A stretch of 64,000 nt of DNA, from positions 32,001 to 96,000 of the IMG/VR virus record IMGVR_UViG_3300016469_000277; one strand, given 5' to 3'. The DNA comes from a virus. This document shows, one piece after another, positions 2,349 through 46,639 of this stretch. Made by a program: the position numbers and the translations under genes. Numbering within the stretch: position 1 is the stretch's first letter; every line of letters starts with the position of its first letter. The notes below the pieces were generated by a model. That model did no database searches, was not told the DNA's origin, and saw only the letters and a program-made list of their open reading frames with translations.

Positions 2349-3710
2349 ATGCGCTATAAGAAGATGACTAATCCCACAGACGGGATTAACCAGACTAATA
2401 AACAGTTAGGTACAGTTGAAGACCAACTCTGCTGCATTGATGACAGTATCAAAGCAGTAGAGAATGCAGTCGAAAACATAAACGTAACTGTTGGGGAATT
2501 TACTCTAGCTAATACTCCTCAAATAGATGCTTTTGGTCGTCTTCGTGTAAGTAATCCTTTAACTTTATTTGATTCAAGCCACAGATTCGATGATAACGAT
2601 TTGTGGTCTACAGCTGTTGCTACTAGTGGAGCAGCTGTTTATAATACTAACCAAGGTTTAATTGATCTTAATGTAACAAATGCTAGTGGTTCCTCAGTAA
2701 CGAGAGAGACTATTAAAGTGTTTGCTTACCAACCAGGTAAATCTCTTTTAGTTCTTAATACGTTTGTAATGAGTCCTGCTAAAACAGGACTAACTCAACG
2801 TGTAGGATACTATGGAACACAAAATGGTTTCTACTTAGAACAAGTAGATAACACAGTTCAATTTGTAAAAAGAAGCTTAGTTACAGGAAGTGTAGTAAAC
2901 ACCCCTGTTACTCAAGCTAACTGGAATGGAGATAGGTTAGATGGAACTGGTCCTAGTGGAATTACTTTAGATTTAACTAAAGCTCAAATCTTATGGATGG
3001 ATCTTGAGTGGCTAGGTGTAGGTTCAGTTCGTATAGGATTTGTAATTAACGGACAATTCATTGTTTGTCATACATTTCAACATGCCAACATAATAACAAG
3101 TACTTACATAACTACTGCTTCACTTCCTCTCCGTTATGAAATATTTAACACTAGCGGAACAAGCGGAGCTTCTACTTTAAAACAAATCTGTTCTACTGTA
3201 ATTTCTGAAGGAGGATACCAGCTTAAAGGAGAACAACGTTCTGTAGGAACTTCTATTCTTTCTGCTAGAACTTTTGCAGTAGCCGGAACTTATTACCCAA
3301 TTGTTGCACTTAGATTAAAATCAACCAGACTAGATGCAATTGCTGTTGTAAGTGCTGTTTCTCTTTTAGGAATAGGAAACGGCAAAAACTACGCTTGGAG
3401 AATAGTAAATATGGGTGTATCAGTTACAGGAGGTTCTTGGGTTTCTGCAGCTGTAGATTCTTCTGTTGAGTATAACTTAACCGGGACAAGTGCATCAGGA
3501 GGAAGAATAGTTGCTAGTGGTTATATTAATTCTTCTAACCAAGCTTCCCCCGCACTTAATATATTAAAAGAAGCTCTCTTTGCTAATCAACTAGAAAGAA
3601 ACGGCTTAACCGGAGTTCCTTATGAGTTTGTACTAGAGGTAGCTGTAGGAACAACTTCTGGAGGTGAAGGAGTTTTTGCTTCAATAGACTGGGAAGAAAT
3701 AAGCAGATAA
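2349..3710 (+). CDS. putative virion structural protein
   Basis: DAFGRLRVSNP motif, beta-rich composition, located in tail module. Confidence 0.6.
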   Translation: MRYKKMTNPTDGINQTNKQLGTVEDQLCCIDDSIKAVENAVENINVTVGEFTLANTPQIDAFGRLRVSNPLTLFDSSHRFDDNDLWSTAVATSGAAVYNTNQGLIDLNVTNASGSSVTRETIKVFAYQPGKSLLVLNTFVMSPAKTGLTQRVGYYGTQNGFYLEQVDNTVQFVKRSLVTGSVVNTPVTQANWNGDRLDGTGPSGITLDLTKAQILWMDLEWLGVGSVRIGFVINGQFIVCHTFQHANIITSTYITTASLPLRYEIFNTSGTSGASTLKQICSTVISEGGYQLKGEQRSVGTSILSARTFAVAGTYYPIVALRLKSTRLDAIAVVSAVSLLGIGNGKNYAWRIVNMGVSVTGGSWVSAAVDSSVEYNLTGTSASGGRIVASGYINSSNQASPALNILKEALFANQLERNGLTGVPYEFVLEVAVGTTSGGEGVFASIDWEEISR

Positions 3711-4182: not shown

Positions 4183-6741
4183 ATGAGTGACGCAAAAGTA
4201 TCTTTTTACCCTATAGGAGTTCCTCCTAGTCGTACATTAACAATTAATGGTACAACTTATGATTTATCTGTAAACAGAAGTTGGTCTGTAGGTGATGTTT
4301 TTACTTCTGGAAGTTATTCTAATCCGACTTGGATTACTTCATTGGCTTGGTCTAAAATTACTTCTACTCCTACAACATTAGCAGGATATGGAATTACAGA
4401 TGGAGTTTCTACTTCTAGAACTTTAACTATAAATGGAACAGCGTTTGATTTGTCAGCAAACCGTACTTGGTCTGTAGGTACAGTAACAAGTGTCGCAGCT
4501 CTTACACTGGGAACTTCTGGAACAGACTTAAGTTCTACTGTAGCAACAGGTACTACTACTCCTGTAATAACTTTAAACGTACCAACTGCAAGTGCAACTA
4601 ATAGAGGTGCATTAAGTTCTGCTGATTGGAGTACGTTTAATAATAAAATAGGTGGTAGCGGTACAAATGGGCAGATTTCATATTTTACTGCCGCAAGCAC
4701 AATAGCAAGTTCTTCAACACTGACATTTACACCAACAACTGCTTTACGATTAAGCAACTCGGTTACTGCTGGTTTGGGTCTTGCGCAAGGCAGCTTTTTT
4801 TCACCTACCGTGATTGCTGCTGCAAACAACGATGTATTAGTTGGTTTAGACATAACACCTACGTTTACCGTTGGTGTATTTACTGGCGTAACGCCTTTAG
4901 CATTAAGAGCAAGTGGTCGCGTTACTTTTCAAGGCTCTGTTACAAACACAGGTAATTTATCAAACTATACCGTAACCGCCTCAAGTGCTTTGGCTCGTTC
5001 AAAGGCTATTACTTCGACTTTAGTTGCAGCGGCCAATAACGATGTGCTTGCAGCTTTAGATATAGCCCCTACCTTTACGAATGGACTTTTCACTGGCGTT
5101 TCAAACTTTGCATTAAGAACACAAACTGGTAACGTGGTTTTTGGAACTACAAGTGGTTCAGTTGGTATAGGTACTTCAAGTATTAACGCAAGTGCTATTC
5201 TTGACATCACTTCTACGGCAAGAGGTTTTCTTGCCCCAAGAATGACTACGGCACAGAAAAACGCCATTGGTACTCCTGCAACGGGCTTATTGGTTTATGA
5301 TACCACTTTAAACGCCTTTAATTTTTACAACGGTAGCGTTTGGGGTGGTTTAGGTGGAGGACTTACAAACTGGACTGAAGCCTATTCAGCAGCACAACCC
5401 ACAAGTTCTTTCACGGCTACTAATGCTTCTGCAAACGTAAACGCAGCACTTGTTCCAAAAGGCACTGGCGCAGTTGTAGCGTCTATACCTGATGGTGGAG
5501 GTGGAGGTAACTCAAGAGGTATTTACGCAGTAGATTTACAAACAAGAAGAAACAACGCAGCTCAAGTTGCTTCGGGCGATTATTCTGTAATTGGTGGAGG
5601 CTTCTTCAATAGAGCAACAGCTTTTGGCTCTCACACAGGAGGAGGCTATAACAATAACAATGCTTCTACTTATGGACTTATAGGGGGAGGAGAAACCAAT
5701 ACAATAGTTGGAGGACAAGGCGATGTAATTACGGGAGGTTCAAACAATACGATAAACTTTGCTGGTGTTGGTAACGCCAATTGGAGATTTATTGGTGGTG
5801 GATATGGTAATTCTACTAGTGGTGGTCAAAATGATACCGCAGCGATTGTAGGAGGTTTATCTAATTATATTGGTCTTTTCGGAAACTATGCTTTCTTGGG
5901 CGCAGGCAGACAAAATAGCTGTACTGGTACTTATAGTGCTTTAACTGGAGGTTATCTAAACAGAATAGGTAATGGTGATAATAATTTAGCAACTAATTGT
6001 TTCTTGGGTGCTGGGCAATCTAATGTTATAGACACTAACTCTGATTACTCAACTTTGGGAGGGGGTTTATCAAATACTATTTCAGGAGTAGATTATTGCT
6101 TTATTGGAGGTGGTAATACAAACACAATCTCACAAAACTACGGAACTATTGTTGGAGGTCAAAGCCAAACAATATCCGCTACTTATGGTTACATAGGTGG
6201 AGGTCAAAGCAACACTGTTTCTGCAAGTTATGCGTCAATTAACGGAGGACTTCAAGCAACTGCTGGTCTTTATGGACAACAAGCAAGAGCAGCAGGTCAA
6301 TTTGCAGCCAGTGGAGATGCACAAGCGCACGAACTTATTTGGCGTAGATCAATCACAGGAACAGCTCAAACAGAATTATTTCTTGATGGGGCAAGTGTAG
6401 CTGCTATTCTTCCAGGAACTAATGCCATTTGGCAAGGAATAATTGATATAGCAGCTGTTTGTACTGTAACAGGTAACGGAACTACTACTGTAGGAGATGT
6501 TGCTGCTACTTCTTATAAAGTAACAATTAAAAGAATTGGAACTACTACTTCACTTGTAGGCACTGTTCAAGAAATAGGGACTACTAATTCAAACACTTCA
6601 ATGTCTACATCAGTCTTTACAATAGACAATAATGACACAAGTGAGAGTTTAAGAATACAATTTACTCCTCCGACTACCGCAGGATCAACTACTGTAACTC
6701 GTGCAGTAGCTACCTTTAGAGGACTTCAAATACAATACTAA
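4183..6741 (+). CDS. tail fibre / receptor-binding protein
   Basis: T/S/G/A-rich; PTTLAGYGITD motif; duplicated RTLTINGT.DLS.NR.WSVG and AAANNDVL repeats; GG.xN beta-roll repeats. Confidence 0.8.
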   Translation: MSDAKVSFYPIGVPPSRTLTINGTTYDLSVNRSWSVGDVFTSGSYSNPTWITSLAWSKITSTPTTLAGYGITDGVSTSRTLTINGTAFDLSANRTWSVGTVTSVAALTLGTSGTDLSSTVATGTTTPVITLNVPTASATNRGALSSADWSTFNNKIGGSGTNGQISYFTAASTIASSSTLTFTPTTALRLSNSVTAGLGLAQGSFFSPTVIAAANNDVLVGLDITPTFTVGVFTGVTPLALRASGRVTFQGSVTNTGNLSNYTVTASSALARSKAITSTLVAAANNDVLAALDIAPTFTNGLFTGVSNFALRTQTGNVVFGTTSGSVGIGTSSINASAILDITSTARGFLAPRMTTAQKNAIGTPATGLLVYDTTLNAFNFYNGSVWGGLGGGLTNWTEAYSAAQPTSSFTATNASANVNAALVPKGTGAVVASIPDGGGGGNSRGIYAVDLQTRRNNAAQVASGDYSVIGGGFFNRATAFGSHTGGGYNNNNASTYGLIGGGETNTIVGGQGDVITGGSNNTINFAGVGNANWRFIGGGYGNSTSGGQNDTAAIVGGLSNYIGLFGNYAFLGAGRQNSCTGTYSALTGGYLNRIGNGDNNLATNCFLGAGQSNVIDTNSDYSTLGGGLSNTISGVDYCFIGGGNTNTISQNYGTIVGGQSQTISATYGYIGGGQSNTVSASYASINGGLQATAGLYGQQARAAGQFAASGDAQAHELIWRRSITGTAQTELFLDGASVAAILPGTNAIWQGIIDIAAVCTVTGNGTTTVGDVAATSYKVTIKRIGTTTSLVGTVQEIGTTNSNTSMSTSVFTIDNNDTSESLRIQFTPPTTAGSTTVTRAVATFRGLQIQY

Positions 6742-29936: not shown

Positions 29937-32201
29937 TCAGTCAAATAATCTTTCAATATTATTTTCGGCTTCAAAATAAGATTCTGGTACAAAAAAGTAA
30001 GAACCACAGTGATCGCAAGATAATATATCTGTGCAATCGTCGTGTTTTACTATTGAGTCACTAAAACAACAAGGACAATAACCTAGTTCTAACTCTGCAA
30101 TAACTTCATCATCTGTTATTTCTTCGTATTCTAGAACATGACGATACTTGTAAGTTGGAATTTTAAGTTTAGGCTTTTTTTGTTCAAAAGAAGAATTCCA
30201 ATCGTCTACTTCGTAGTCCTCACTCCATCTTTCTCCATAATTAACTGTAGTAGGCTTAAGTGGATAATCAGAAGTAGCTTTGTGTTCCCACTTAGTCTTT
30301 CCTAGAGTAGTTAAACACTCGTAACCAAAATTAATAGAATTTTCCAAAGCTTGTATAGAGGTAATTTCTTGTTCGGAATGCTCGTCAAAATAACCGGCTG
30401 ATATGTTGCACCCAATGCAATTTACCCCAGGCAACTTAACAATCTCTCCAACATCAGTATAAACTCCATTGCTTTCAAAAAACTCATATTTTTCCATAAT
30501 AGGTTTAGCTGCGTCAACAAACTCCTTACTGCAAGTTTTTACACCATTAGTATGAGTTATTAACTCCAATCCTTTATATGCATTCCTATCCATTTGAAAT
30601 ATCATGGAACAGTCATGAAAAAAGGCTACATCAGCTTGTTTACTTCCCACACCTTATTGTTACCATGTAAGCTCTTTATCTTACATTTCTGCACTTTCTT
30701 TTGTTATATGTGCAGTTCAGACTATATCATCACCATATAGGTGTTCCGCGCTCGTGGTGTTTTACCGTCCTTAACTTAATAGTAGGACTCCATACACTAG
30801 TCGTTGAACCTTCAATGCGTTTCTGCAAAGCTTGGCTGCTGATTGTCCTCTTCAGGATTTTCCAGCAATTCACGGAATTTTAATTGGTCATGTGGGTATT
30901 TTCTATCTAAATAACAAGTTGCGTCTTTATAAATATAATTTAAAAATAAATTTTTTTCTTCAGTAAATTGCCAAACAAAAACATTTCTTTTAGTGTATCG
31001 AATGTTTCCAAAAGGTTTTTTAAATTTATTTTTAAAATAATTTTTAAAGTCTTCTAAAATTGAAGAAGTTTTACTAGTAAAAAGAATATTATTTCCAGAA
31101 AAACATCCATCTCCGTCAAAATAACCTCTTATAAAATGTCTAATCAAGTTTTCTAGAATATTAGGAATTTTTAAATCCATATAGGTTTTTCTATTTCCTA
31201 ATCCAAGTTTTATCAAATGATCTACAAATTTTGTAGAACTAATTGATAAAGCATATTGATTTTTTCTCTTATACTTTTGATTATTCATAGGAGAGATAAA
31301 CTCTTTTCCTTCTCTAAAATGTAAAGGTCCTTTATGACCTAACTCTTTTTTAAAAAATTCAAGAATGTGTTTATCTTTTTCTGCTAAATTAATAGTAAAT
31401 GATTTTTCAATCCAAAAATCACTTCTTTTTCTAATGTAAATTCCTCCATCGGCAAACACAAATCCTAAAAAATATGCTTTAGCTTCTGTATCAATATTTT
31501 CAAAATAATCTTCATTATACTGATACTTTTTACTAAATTTTTTTAAAGGATATTCAAAATCATAGTGTTTAAAAAACTTTTTTAAGTATTTTGAACACTT
31601 ATTAAAATGTTTACCAGTTTTAGTTATTGACCCGTTACTTAAATAGTAGGTATAGTATTGTTGTACGTTTTCTAAAGATTCCATATTACAAATATAATAC
31701 AAAATTTAAAAAACCCAACACTCCTATACACATTTATTTTTAACCAATTTCTTCGTCTTTAAAAAATGCAATCTTAATCTCGTCGATAAGATCAAACATC
31801 ATCAAAGCAAAAAGACAACCATTCTTGTCATCAAAGCCTACACCGCATTGCAAACCTGTTTCGTTGTCTATACCGTAAACAAATTTGTCTGTTCTTTCTA
31901 TGCGGAGTTCTTTTTTGAAATCTTGGTTAATGTCGGTATGCGCTATAACACAAGGATACAAATCAGTATCTCCTTTGACTGCATAGAGATTTCCAAATTT
32001 ATCTTGAGAGACTCTTACTCCAGGAGTTTTTTCTAATCTTTCTTTAAGCCAATTAATAAATCTATCTTGATGAGCAGATCCGCTAGGAGTTTGCTTATAA
32101 AGTAAAGTAAAAAATAAAGACCAATCTATTTTGATTGGATTGTCAAGTTTGGGAAAAGAGGGTTTAGCCTCTGAATACCCGTAGTTATAGTAAGAACGCA
32201 T
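29937..32201 (-). CDS. M28/M42-like zinc peptidase in two exons (32201-31742 joined to 30652-29937; 391 aa)
   Basis: AHTD, GFDDKNG, spliced EEIGCVGS, QMDR and HSEQE metal-binding motifs; junction restores frame. Confidence 0.88.
30653..31741 (-). mobile_element. group I intron (1089 nt)
   Basis: 5' splice site after U, terminal G; P AATTGCTGGAAA, Q AATCAGCAG, R GTTCAACGACTA, S GATATAGTC; IGS 30882-30896 pairs with both exons. Confidence 0.93.
30812..31684 (-). CDS. intron-encoded double-motif LAGLIDADG homing endonuclease (start revised)
   Basis: AYFLGFVFADG and FIRGYFDGDG motifs. Confidence 0.92.
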   Translation of the reverse strand: MESLENVQQYYTYYLSNGSITKTGKHFNKCSKYLKKFFKHYDFEYPLKKFSKKYQYNEDYFENIDTEAKAYFLGFVFADGGIYIRKRSDFWIEKSFTINLAEKDKHILEFFKKELGHKGPLHFREGKEFISPMNNQKYKRKNQYALSISSTKFVDHLIKLGLGNRKTYMDLKIPNILENLIRHFIRGYFDGDGCFSGNNILFTSKTSSILEDFKNYFKNKFKKPFGNIRYTKRNVFVWQFTEEKNLFLNYIYKDATCYLDRKYPHDQLKFRELLENPEEDNQQPSFAETH

Positions 32202-39925: not shown

Positions 39926-40032
39926 TGCGAGTGACAGGATTCGAACCTGTACGTAGGACCTACAATTAGATGATCGGCTATCCTACAGTAGTGATGATAA
40001 TACTTGCGTCTAACCAATTCCGCCACACTCGC
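39926..40032 (-). ncRNA. tRNA-like RNA A (Leu-type D/T arms, non-canonical 55-nt centre)
   Basis: Acceptor GCGAGTG/CACTCGC+A; GGCGGAATTGGTTAGACGC; ACAGG-TTCGAAT-CCTGT; no canonical 7-nt anticodon loop. Confidence 0.8.
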
Positions 40033-40987: not shown

Positions 40988-41119
40988 TAGTCAGGACAGG
41001 ATTCGAACCTGTATGATGTACTGCTTCACTTCCAAAACGGTTGATTCCCTTGTATGGACGCATCGACACATCTCCTATTTAATCTTATAGTAGCGTCTAA
41101 CCAATTCCGCCACCTGACT
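40988..41119 (-). ncRNA. tRNA-like RNA B (Leu-type D/T arms, non-canonical 80-nt centre)
   Basis: Acceptor AGTCAGG/CCTGACT+A; D and T arms identical to RNA A. Confidence 0.8.
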
Positions 41120-43450: not shown

Positions 43451-43597
43451 AAATTTACCCCTCTGCACTCAGTTGTAACTCCAGGTTTATACCCTGAGAT
43501 TCAGACATTACTACGCTGCAGTCTTTCTCTGCAGATGCTCGTATTCTTATTACAACTGTCAGCCCTTGGGAAGCTGAAGTGGTGCGTTAAAAAATTT
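43451..43597 (-). ncRNA. twister ribozyme 1 (type P1, long P5)
   Basis: U^AA-CGCA-CC...TCAGC-TTCCCAAGG-GCTGA-[P5 CAGTTGTAA/TTACAACTG]-TGCA-GA-GGG; predicted cleavage 43589/43588; one C-A mismatch in P2. Confidence 0.85.
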
Positions 43598-43717: not shown

Positions 43718-44592
43718 TTATCCCTCTGCACTCAGTTGTAATAGATAGCCAGTAGTACTACAGTATGGGTTACATACTGTCCATTGCTGATTCCAACGCA
43801 GCATTACCTGAAGTTGGCGGTCACTATCTGTTACAACTGCTCACCCTTGGTGAGTGTGCTGAGGAGTGTAGTACCACTTATATCCATAAGCGGTTTTACT
43901 ACTATCTTTAGCTGCTTTTGACAAGCAGGTAGTTTTATAATTTAATTCTCTTTCTATGTCTTTCATACAAGACCACTCTTTGATAAATAACCCATCAAGA
44001 GTGTATTGGTATAGTTTTTTAGCTTTACCATGTTTAGCTCCAGAAAACATTTGAGAAAGTTTTTTCTTAGTTTCTTCAGTATGCTTAGGTCTATTTCCTC
44101 CTTTATTGAGATTAAGACCTTTGTTTTCATCTTTCCAATAGCATTTATAAAAAGCAATCCAATATTGCTCTCTTTCATCCGCTAAAGTGTCAGAAACCTC
44201 TTCTATTATCTCACACACATGATTCGCAAAACCATATTTTTTCAAAGAGTTATGTAATCTATATTGAGTTCTACAATGTAGAATTTTATATAAATTCATT
44301 CTCTTTTTATAATCCTTTGTTTGCCCAATATATACCTTTCCTGTTGGACTTGTGATTTTGTATATTGTTATCATAATACAAATATACAAAATAATGCACC
44401 ATTTCCCAAGGGCTTAGGAAAATAAATTTCTTTATCACCCTTGGGAAACTGATTAACTAACAATATACAACAGAGGATTTTACAACTGCTGTTATTATTC
44501 TTCATTAATCAGTGTGGTTTCACATCTTGACCCATCAAGCAGGGCAGCGACAAGAAGTCTTTATATCCACGTGAGTTATGGTGCATTAATAA
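43718..44592 (-). ncRNA. twister ribozyme 2, split (5' half 44571-44592, 3' half 43718-43850)
   Basis: TTAT-U^AA-TGCA-CC-ATAA-CTCAC ... CAAGG-GTGAG-P5-TGCA-GAGGG-ATAA, with a ~720-nt insertion in L4. Confidence 0.8.
43841..44374 (-). CDS. GIY-YIG endonuclease with NUMOD-type C-terminus (start revised)
   Basis: TIYKITSPTGKVYIGQT...R...E..WI...GLN; QYTLDG.FIKEW...AYGYKW. Confidence 0.9.
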   Translation of the reverse strand: MITIYKITSPTGKVYIGQTKDYKKRMNLYKILHCRTQYRLHNSLKKYGFANHVCEIIEEVSDTLADEREQYWIAFYKCYWKDENKGLNLNKGGNRPKHTEETKKKLSQMFSGAKHGKAKKLYQYTLDGLFIKEWSCMKDIERELNYKTTCLSKAAKDSSKTAYGYKWYYTPQHTHQG

Positions 44593-45416: not shown

Positions 45417-45686
45417 TTAAAAGTTGATACTTTCTAGGACAAAACGCCTGTAAGTTATCTCATTTACTGTTCTTGGTTCTATTTCTCTAATAGTAATTGT
45501 CTCTGCTTGTTTAAGTTGAAACATATCACTAATGGGAAACTGTGCTTTACTGCCAATAATAATCTTTTCGGATTTACCGTCAAAGTCTACTGTGATAGCA
45601 GCGTAGTCACGAACATAGGTGAAACCTTTTACAGGCTTTGTGAAGGTGGCGTTAGCCACGATAGCGGATTTAGTTGTAGTGCTCAT
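45417..45686 (-). CDS. small beta-rich early protein (start revised)
   Basis: Preceded by the candidate phage promoter; followed by a GGGGA/TCCCC terminator. Confidence 0.65.
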   Translation of the reverse strand: MSTTTKSAIVANATFTKPVKGFTYVRDYAAITVDFDGKSEKIIIGSKAQFPISDMFQLKQAETITIREIEPRTVNEITYRRFVLESINF

Positions 45687-45717
45687 TGTATTTAGTTTTA
45701 ATGCCACATTAGGCACT

Positions 45718-45791: not shown

Positions 45792-45850
45792 TTCTGTTTC
45801 GACCCTCAATTAGGTCATCATCAGCAGAGAGAATAACTCTCTGGACAGAA
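45792..45850 (-). ncRNA. hammerhead ribozyme 1 (type III)
   Basis: TTCTG-TC^-CAGAGAG/CTCTCTG-CTGATGA-T-GACC/GGTC-GAAA-CAGAA. Confidence 0.9.
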
Positions 45851-45851
45851 A

Positions 45852-45988
45852 TTAAAACAAGCAGTAGATAAACTCTCGAAATATAGTGGCCACTATAAAC
45901 GATACAAAGATATTTACAGATTTCTCAGGTCTGCTTTCTCTTTAACACAATTGAGAATGTGTTCGTACTTCTCTACTACTTGTTTTAA
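45852..45988 (-). ncRNA. candidate structured RNA domain with kissing loops
   Basis: 17-bp closing stem; inner loops TTCTCA and TGAGAA are complementary. Confidence 0.55.
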
Positions 45989-46243
45989 TAGTATATATCA
46001 GGAATATACCAGCACCGCTGTTTTTGCTCGTAGTCTACAGCTTAACCACAAGCCCCTATCCTTTCCCCTATTTACTACATTCGGGAATACTTTCAGGTAA
46101 TTTTTAAAGATTGCATGTTTTTGAATAACGCTTTTGTATTTGGTTAACTCATAAGCGTCGGATAGAAAGCAAAAGAGTTTGGTATGCAGTAATATACCAT
46201 TCTCTCTCTTTACTACAAGGAATGCCTTCCATAGTAGTGCTTT

Positions 46244-46303
46244 TTTCTGTTTCGGGACTCGATTATCCCATCATCAGGTAGAACAAAAGTCCTACGACAG
46301 AAA
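46244..46303 (-). ncRNA. hammerhead ribozyme 2 (type III)
   Basis: TTTCTG-TC^-GTAG/CTAC-CTGATGA-T-GGGA/TCCC-GAAA-CAGAAA. Confidence 0.9.
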
Positions 46304-46309
46304 GGGAGA

Positions 46310-46639
46310 CTAAGCTCCCTGACTTTTAAGTTGGTAGAACGAATGACTTCTATACCTTTCTTCAAGATAGTTAAGTATTCTTTCTAGTATGGGTGCTTCT
46401 TCAGCCCACATATCTGACTTGAGATAGTGGTCACGAAGTTCTTGCGAACCCAAGTCTTTACCACTGGCTATCTGAAAGCCAATAGTATCGAACCAATTAA
46501 ATGCACCTTCTACATAGCCACCACCATATTTGGTTTCGTGAACAGGTACATTAAGCACTTCATTGCAGATATCTTCATCTAATTTGTTGAGAGATACTGC
46601 TTCGTTTGTTTCTTTACTGTATAGTTTAAAGCAAATCAT
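46310..46639 (-). CDS. hypothetical early protein
   Basis: 109-aa ORF ending just before hammerhead 2. Confidence 0.7.
   Translation of the reverse strand: MICFKLYSKETNEAVSLNKLDEDICNEVLNVPVHETKYGGGYVEGAFNWFDTIGFQIASGKDLGSQELRDHYLKSDMWAEEAPILERILNYLEERYRSHSFYQLKSQGA

Follow-up and report, generated by a model that had tools for sequence, protein, structure and literature searches.

An apparently uncatalogued large phage RNA with ends probably made by interchangeable self-cleaving ribozymes

Thousands of self-cleaving ribozymes have been found in bacteria and phages. Their roles there are still called largely elusive in reviews (PMC6765202). One described arrangement is that of prophages in which several closely spaced hammerheads on one strand would divide a long transcript into segments with defined limits; that study also considered circular products (PMC3088659). 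The phage locus described here shares this organization, whereas its cargo is of another kind: the prophage hammerheads enclose one or a few protein genes of varying identity, those described here a single conserved, gene-free and ornate RNA, and the class of ribozyme found at the same boundary varies among the relatives of our locus. A second comparison is provided by the theta ribozymes, minimal HDV-like ribozymes that adjoin phage tRNAs and have been proposed to make their ends (Kienbeck et al. 2024, PMC10879173). In both cases a phage self-cleaving ribozyme directly adjoins a structured non-coding RNA; however, the ribozyme class differs, and instead of a tRNA the cargo is here an RNA of ~400 nt, often with ribozymes on both sides.

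Among large structured RNAs, ROOL and GOLLD, which form homo-oligomers, are reportedly often phage-borne and often located near tRNA genes. Our RNA resembles these two and OLE in extending over hundreds of nucleotides with many helices, conserved unpaired bases and pseudoknots, candidate ones in our case (Weinberg et al. 2017, PMC5737381; Kretsch et al. 2025, PMC12286853). In contrast with them, it is smaller, has no Rfam match to any of the three and is bracketed by self-cleaving ribozymes. Retrozymes, for their part, are characterized by long terminal repeats with hammerheads, a primer-binding site, a polypurine tract, target-site duplication, many copies and a reverse transcriptase supplied in trans. 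Like our locus, the retrozymes of plants and animals and viroid-like circular RNAs have a pair of hammerheads of the same polarity that cut out, in our case as predicted, an RNA a few hundred nucleotides long that lacks ORFs and has ligatable ends (PMC5680766, PMC7761336). By contrast, the module described here occurs as a single copy in a double-stranded DNA phage, with neither tandem copies nor a reverse transcriptase and with no long terminal repeats, primer-binding site, polypurine tract or target-site duplication apparent, its hammerheads may be missing or give way to twisters in relatives, and its predicted fold is branched and pseudoknotted instead of rod-like. Ribozyme-processed phage transcripts were therefore already known, and what is new is an RNA family as their cargo; full-text literature searches retrieved no description of this RNA, nor of any conserved large non-coding RNA with ends made by interchangeable ribozyme classes.

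The stretch of DNA that we analysed (64,000 nt, hereafter the window) corresponds to positions 32,001 to 96,000 of the IMG/VR record IMGVR_UViG_3300016469_000277, which represents an uncultured tailed double-stranded DNA phage of 108 kb (94% complete). The gene arms of this phage are divergent, with DNA polymerase and helicases encoded on the minus strand and terminase, portal and capsid on the plus strand, and its capsid protein is only ~25% identical to proteins of isolated phages, one crAss-like phage among these. Judged by layout, the group consists of a small set of uncultured phages that are crAss-like only distantly. The ribozyme-RNA module (Table 1) is located at most ~1.5 kb from the start of the minus-strand, replication-side arm, after two small genes. 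The small proteins encoded on its two flanks belong to no Pfam or PHROG family, and across the homologous loci presented below we found no protein gene conserved beside the RNA; the sole recurrent genes, some divergently oriented ones 2-5 kb upstream, are shared by three to four loci. A 17-nt motif at 45734-45718 (minus strand) precedes the downstream small gene and is also found at 47115-47099 (minus strand), upstream of another small gene. The two copies are identical at all but one position and lie ~45-55 nt 5' of the ATG of two small genes located where the minus-strand arm begins, which makes the motif a candidate early promoter or regulatory site.

Table 1. Features of the ribozyme-RNA locus, with coordinates counted from the first letter of the window
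Feature	Coordinates	Strand	Description
Small gene 5' of HH-A	46310..46639	-	109 aa; no Pfam or PHROG match; stop codon 46312-46310
Short G+C hairpin	46303..46320	-	Directly 5' of the HH-A cut site; the 90% identity with L010 begins here
Hammerhead A (HH-A), type III	46244..46303	-	Predicted cut between 46296 and 46295; stem I 7 bp + tetraloop, stem II 5 bp + 6-nt loop, stem III 7 bp
RNA predicted to be released by both cuts	45844..46295	-	452 nt: HH-A body (~52 nt) + ~400-nt conserved core + 8-nt 5' strand of HH-B stem III
5' three-way junction	46166..46243	-	Closing stem + hairpin H1 (loop GGCA 46226-46223) + hairpin H2 (conserved 8-nt loop 46193-46186)
Variable region	46098..46165	-	Hairpin differing in length and sequence per relative, then A-rich linker
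H2-loop complement	46072..46078	-	7 nt pairing with 46192-46186; candidate long-range pseudoknot, 5' to 3' domain
Hairpin with candidate second pseudoknot	46018..46053	-	Hairpin 46053-46026; loop bases 46040-46037 complementary to 46021-46018
8-bp hairpin with conserved loop	45989..46011	-	Helix 4; 5 of 8 pairs compensatory
3' domain	45853..45987	-	16-bp closing helix (45987-45972 with 45868-45853); helix 5, 11 of 16 pairs compensatory
Hammerhead B (HH-B), type III	45792..45851	-	Predicted cut between 45844 and 45843; same layout as HH-A, 452 nt downstream
Small gene 3' of HH-B	45417..45689	-	90 aa from ATG; no family match; strong terminator after it

A preliminary description of this DNA had proposed two same-polarity hammerheads bracketing a 452-nt stretch, and our analysis confirmed them, both copies having the full type III core on the minus strand. 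In minus-strand order, each consists of an 8-nt strand ending in GUC, the stem I hairpin, CUGAUGA followed by one U, the stem II hairpin, GAAA, and the complement of the 8-nt strand; the catalytic core is complete in HH-A and HH-B alike (CUGAUGA, GAAA, A15.1-U16.1 and a cleavable H17, with C17 at 46296 and 45844). The same description had reported that the copies share the sequence before the cut, that stem II covaries between them and that both contain an extra U after CUGAUGA. All of this agrees with what we observed: 8 nt are common to both copies before the cut, the stem II changes are compensatory, and every member of the hammerhead family has the extra U, located between A9 and G10.1. 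A loose core pattern had three matches in the 64-kb window, against 0.26 expected, the third being devoid of stems. In folding predictions the canonical structure is the minimum free energy (MFE) fold of HH-B; HH-A folded alone has an alternative structure practically equal in energy to the hammerhead (-20.1 vs -19.9 kcal/mol) and adopts the hammerhead fold within the MFE structure of the 452-mer. We infer self-cleavage at both sites.

Rfam 15 reported neither hammerhead, at the gathering threshold or at E <= 10, in the window and in a 1.1-kb slice, and the motif was therefore tested independently. Scanning IMG/VR with a pattern made of the core and the conserved loop II, with no stem constraint, retrieved 31 viral loci, and a stem-checking script recognized a complete type III hammerhead, with differing stem sequences, in 26 of them. 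Among 27 distinct copies (alignment A1), 93.8% of cells pair, a value somewhat inflated because the copies were also filtered for minimal stems, and 14 of the 19 pairs are compensatory; the observed values were reached by none of 500 shuffles, and in slid controls at most 8 pairs were compensatory and pairing dropped to 35-50%. A covariance model (R1) built from these 27 related hammerheads gave 79.2 and 74.7 bits (E ~1e-18) for HH-A and HH-B, both of which are part of the model, and detected no further hammerhead copy over the 108-kb phage genome. The predicted hammerheads A and B are thus members of a real covarying family.

The RNA between the two predicted cuts had been described as ORF-less and highly structured, which is borne out by stops in all frames and a strong predicted fold. 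Each of the six reading frames holds at least three stops, of all three kinds, and the MFE predicted for the 452-nt RNA is -125.8 kcal/mol (z = -5.3 vs shuffles). Stops likewise interrupt every frame in all five two-hammerhead members, and the open stretches are not shared even with the 90%-identical relative. Coding by means of a recoded stop codon is ruled out, since all three stop types occur in every frame.

RNAalifold applied to an alignment of 16 homologous sequences (A2) predicted 60 pairs, with 95.5% of cells paired and 38 pairs compensatory, a count which, like those of the individual helices, overstates independent events because the 16 homologs represent few clades; none of 500 shuffles reached these values, and slid controls gave at most 9 compensatory pairs. 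Two of the domains named in the preliminary description, an AAAGC/GCTTT three-way junction and a 3' domain closed by a long helix, hold under covariation. In the three-way junction, 21 of 27 pairs are compensatory, those of the closing stem among them (alignment A3; 0 of 500 shuffles reached the observed value), and the helix of the 3' domain (Table 1) encloses hairpins 45962-45946, 45943-45906 and 45902-45877 together with invariant unpaired junction bases. The candidate pairing of the H2 loop with a linker 110 nt downstream has 96.9% of its cells paired, and in five sequences C for U in the loop is accompanied by G for A in the linker. In the second candidate pseudoknot both strands are invariant, which places it beyond the reach of covariation. 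Several pairs are near-invariant G-U pairs, and the fold consequently belongs to the minus-strand RNA only. Comparative structure prediction thus identifies the core as a structured non-coding RNA read from the minus strand. As pure speculation, T-loop-like pentanucleotides present in two conserved unpaired stretches could form a docking site for the tRNA elbow.

When the region was compared by blastn with the hammerhead loci, its interior proved homologous in several of them. A search with an nhmmer profile of the last 258 nt and three motif scans yielded 16 distinct homologous sequences, from 10 IMG/VR contigs and from metagenome contigs, with E values of 1e-23 to 1e-75. The region had no blastn match in 50,697 phage records (isolated phages), and when 185,579 bacterial and archaeal species were scanned for the motif in their representative genomes, two chance matches and zero true copies resulted. 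The matches of two looser motif scans of viral contigs were mostly due to chance; a stricter motif had 15 metagenome and two genome-collection matches, six of them by chance (L249, L255, L261-L264), and a second, independent motif added only one chance match (L265). The motif scans yield few true copies, indicating that the RNA family is rare. At E <= 10 for the window and E <= 1 for the other homologous loci scanned (15 homolog loci), Rfam placed no family over the core and reported no hammerhead; the only matches were to twister-P1, at some of the ends, and the core had no match to the Rfam models of ROOL, GOLLD, OLE, HEARO, group I and II introns, RNase P and tmRNA. The RNA, with its ornate ~400-nt core, thus appears to be a previously uncatalogued family, and it is this cargo, not the ribozymes, that constitutes the conserved, selected entity.

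The ribozymes at its ends differ from one homolog to another. At the 3' end a self-cleaving ribozyme is present in 15 of the 16 sequences, a hammerhead in ten and a twister in five (L236, L243, L253, L256 and L260), as assigned by sequence; the remaining sequence, L248, has a long hairpin and a U tract, and no member has an empty 3' side or a contig end there. The 5' end carries a hammerhead in six sequences and a twister in one (L260), a ribozyme was not found or has decayed in seven, the contig ends in two, and elements of other kinds are absent; the blank 5' sides include those of L026/L254, L236 and L017. The 3' twister of L236 matched Rfam twister-P1 (E 3e-9), as did the 5' twister of L260 (E 8e-11); against RF03160, L236 and L247 (3') and L260 (5') obtained E values of 3e-9 to 8e-11 and 53.7-55.7 bits, under the 67.2-bit threshold. 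The 3' twisters of L243, L253, L256 and L260, on which Rfam is silent, are a variant with a long P5 insert that was assigned by pattern and by hand; in this form, represented by those four and by window positions 43458-43590, the P2, P4 and P5 base stems covary. L256 combines a hammerhead at the 5' side with a twister at the 3' side, L260 has a twister on both sides, and the predicted L260 twister cut falls in the same alignment column as the hammerhead cut of the window. Both ribozyme types cut near their own 5' edge, so the 3' end of the RNA would be almost scar-free, the ribozyme body being left on the downstream fragment.

What remains constant in the family is therefore a 3' end, probably self-made, ~9 nt beyond the long helix that closes the 3' domain. 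Many members would also make their own 5' end, which is nevertheless dispensable, probably because some members directly follow a promoter, and with a 5' ribozyme unrecognizable in seven members two-sided excision is not universal. By sequence comparison, the ribozymes are most likely interchangeable end-makers, of the 3' end above all. Finding the same RNA bounded by hammerheads or by twisters, with predicted cuts at the same place, is direct comparative evidence that their job is end-making for a structured RNA, and points to a concrete task for phage ribozymes irrespective of their catalytic fold, namely to form the ends of a large non-coding RNA. Some 5' sides show other elements. In L013 (~6440-6500, plus strand), a segment on the 5' side of the RNA aligns to the hammerhead with its core lost and looks like a decayed ribozyme remnant. 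L026 and L254 contain, ~60 nt before the core, where others have the 5' ribozyme, a conserved hairpin ending in CUGUC that matches no ribozyme model and could be an unrecognized processing element. L013 and L026 also have a conserved upstream motif in common.

Together, these observations make it likely that an ornate non-coding RNA is co-transcribed with the small upstream gene, excised by two type III hammerheads, its ends being made in the family by interchangeable ribozymes, and that it acts in trans. HH-A would cut 8 nt past the hairpin that holds in its loop the stop codon of the upstream gene (46312-46310), forming both the end of the upstream mRNA, with hairpin 46303..46320 as its 3' end, and the start of the RNA. 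HH-B would cut ~9 nt past the long closing helix, generating the 3' end of the RNA and a new 5' end for the downstream transcript. The expected product is a linear RNA of 452 nt that begins with a 5'-OH and the folded HH-A body and ends in a 2',3'-cyclic phosphate. Since its ends can be predicted exactly, this RNA should be readily obtainable for studies of structure and function. The cargo would most likely serve as a trans-acting scaffold, decoy or catalyst early in infection, and the junctions, candidate pseudoknots and invariant unpaired bases of this new large RNA family suggest a demanding biochemical role at that stage.

The predicted excision of a structured non-coding RNA is well supported by the comparison of homologs. 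In one alternative explanation, the only task of the ribozymes would be to separate the mRNAs of an early polycistronic transcript, and what they enclose would be a long structured spacer or UTR that acts in cis on the stability or translation of neighbouring genes and has no function of its own. Hammerheads of this family do usually occur close to genes, an ORF starting 21-35 nt downstream in 24 of 34 pattern matches, clustered hammerheads flanking genes are known in prophages (PMC3088659), and the HH-A cut would provide the upstream mRNA with a 3' hairpin. However, conservation of the core greatly exceeds that of every flanking gene, different relatives have different genes on the flanks, and the core would be separated by the two cuts from the mRNAs on either side; nor would a spacer need a three-way junction, candidate pseudoknots and unpaired bases that do not vary. 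We consider this cis-acting role quite unlikely. Another possibility, which we regard as rather doubtful, is that the excised RNA is closed into a stable circle, by hammerhead religation or by a host RtcB-type ligase. The 5'-OH and 2',3'-cyclic phosphate left by self-cleavage are RtcB substrates, the last 8 nt of the RNA can form 7 bp with the 3' strand of stem III that is retained from HH-A, and the predicted MFE structure of the 452-mer brings both ends together in a rebuilt, nicked hammerhead; rebuilding from the A/U-rich P1 strands could also take place in L260, the relative with two twisters. The preliminary description had stated that end-joining would rebuild a complete hammerhead, which is correct for the present copy (7 bp), whereas the rebuilt stem III has only 4 bp in the other hammerhead/hammerhead relatives (L010, L022, L250 and L251) and rebuilding is impossible in the hammerhead/twister relative L256; where it works, it is a trivial consequence of the family-wide conservation of the inner part of stem III. 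Circles are further disfavoured by the seven members that lack a recognizable 5' ribozyme, by a phage genome devoid of RtcB and Rnl2-type ligase genes (although the host RtcB could still act) and by the precedent of the clustered prophage hammerheads, whose circular or spliced products were sought and found undetectable (Perreault et al. 2011, PMC3088659). Circle formation, if it occurs, is not a conserved trait. A combined scenario, in which a new class of ornate phage RNA is matured by interchangeable ribozymes and its two-ribozyme versions are then circularized by a host RtcB-type ligase or by hammerhead religation to act early, seems unlikely to us; if true, no natural circular RNA made by ribozymes would have been seen in a DNA phage before this one.

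The similarity to retrozymes and viroids drawn in the preliminary description was not supported. The element is present as a single copy in a double-stranded DNA phage, its two hammerheads are alike only in the 60-nt family consensus with no terminal repeats apparent beyond the ribozymes, the phage genome has no match to reverse transcriptase (RVT_1), and relatives swap hammerheads for twisters or have no 5' ribozyme. Viroids and satellite RNAs are circular RNA replicons, autonomous or dependent on a helper, that have no DNA stage, whereas this sequence is part of a 108-kb double-stranded DNA phage record and its homologs are found inside phage contigs. The limits of the module nevertheless evoke mobility of some kind. 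Between the window and L010, 90% identity extends over positions 46320-45793 only, from the hairpin preceding HH-A to the last base of HH-B, and neither blastn nor tblastx detected similarity in the flanks; other pairs of homologs exhibit the same isolated-module pattern. The ribozyme-RNA-ribozyme module is, in the case of L010, the only similar DNA between otherwise dissimilar phages. A selfish cassette spreading through an RNA intermediate or by homing, as retrozymes or introns do, would fit these sharp boundaries, and a GIY-YIG homing endonuclease gene does interrupt a twister 1.3 kb downstream. Against such a cassette, which we judge very improbable, stand the single copy in the genome, the lack of a reverse transcriptase in the phage, module ends without repeats in the comparisons made (the two hammerheads aside), the absence of an endonuclease gene inside the module and the fact that no gene is interrupted, the upstream ORF ending before the module and the downstream gene being separate. 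The same pattern is explained by strong purifying selection on a functional RNA in a fast-evolving region, and we read it as strong selection on the RNA inside a fast-changing early region; the cassette may also have been laterally exchanged between phages. A group I or other mobile intron was ruled out by the lack of an Rfam match and of an interrupted gene.

Other RNA elements are encoded farther downstream on the minus strand, among them two twisters, one with a P5 insert and one apparently split by the gene for the GIY-YIG endonuclease, as well as a tRNA-Glu and two tRNA-like sequences that may be oversized. The first of these twisters (43458-43590, minus strand) is a complete twister-like ribozyme with a long P5 insert, unreported by Rfam and of the same variant as the RNA-ending twisters of L243, L253, L256 and L260; it follows another gene-free stretch, which may be a second ribozyme-ended RNA. 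The second P5-insert twister (43718-44592, minus strand) is apparently split by ~720 nt that contain the endonuclease gene (43841-44389). At 39926-40032 and 40988-41119 (minus strand), matches to the tRNA model (40 and 34 bits) have insertions of 46 and 68 nt in place of the anticodon arm region; ARAGORN calls neither, and they may be oversized tRNA-like RNAs. In five of the ten longer loci, tRNA genes occur on the same strand within a few kb of the RNA. The RNA-bearing relative L236 encodes a full tmRNA (5934-6400, minus strand; 92.8 bits) directly adjoining a tRNA-Leu, ~2.5 kb downstream and on the same strand. Finally, the relative L022 contains a suppressor-type tRNA with anticodon UUA (4636-4713, plus strand), and in L254 ARAGORN calls a tRNA with a four-base anticodon (2437-2512, minus strand), which hints at stop-codon recoding or frameshift suppression in these phages.
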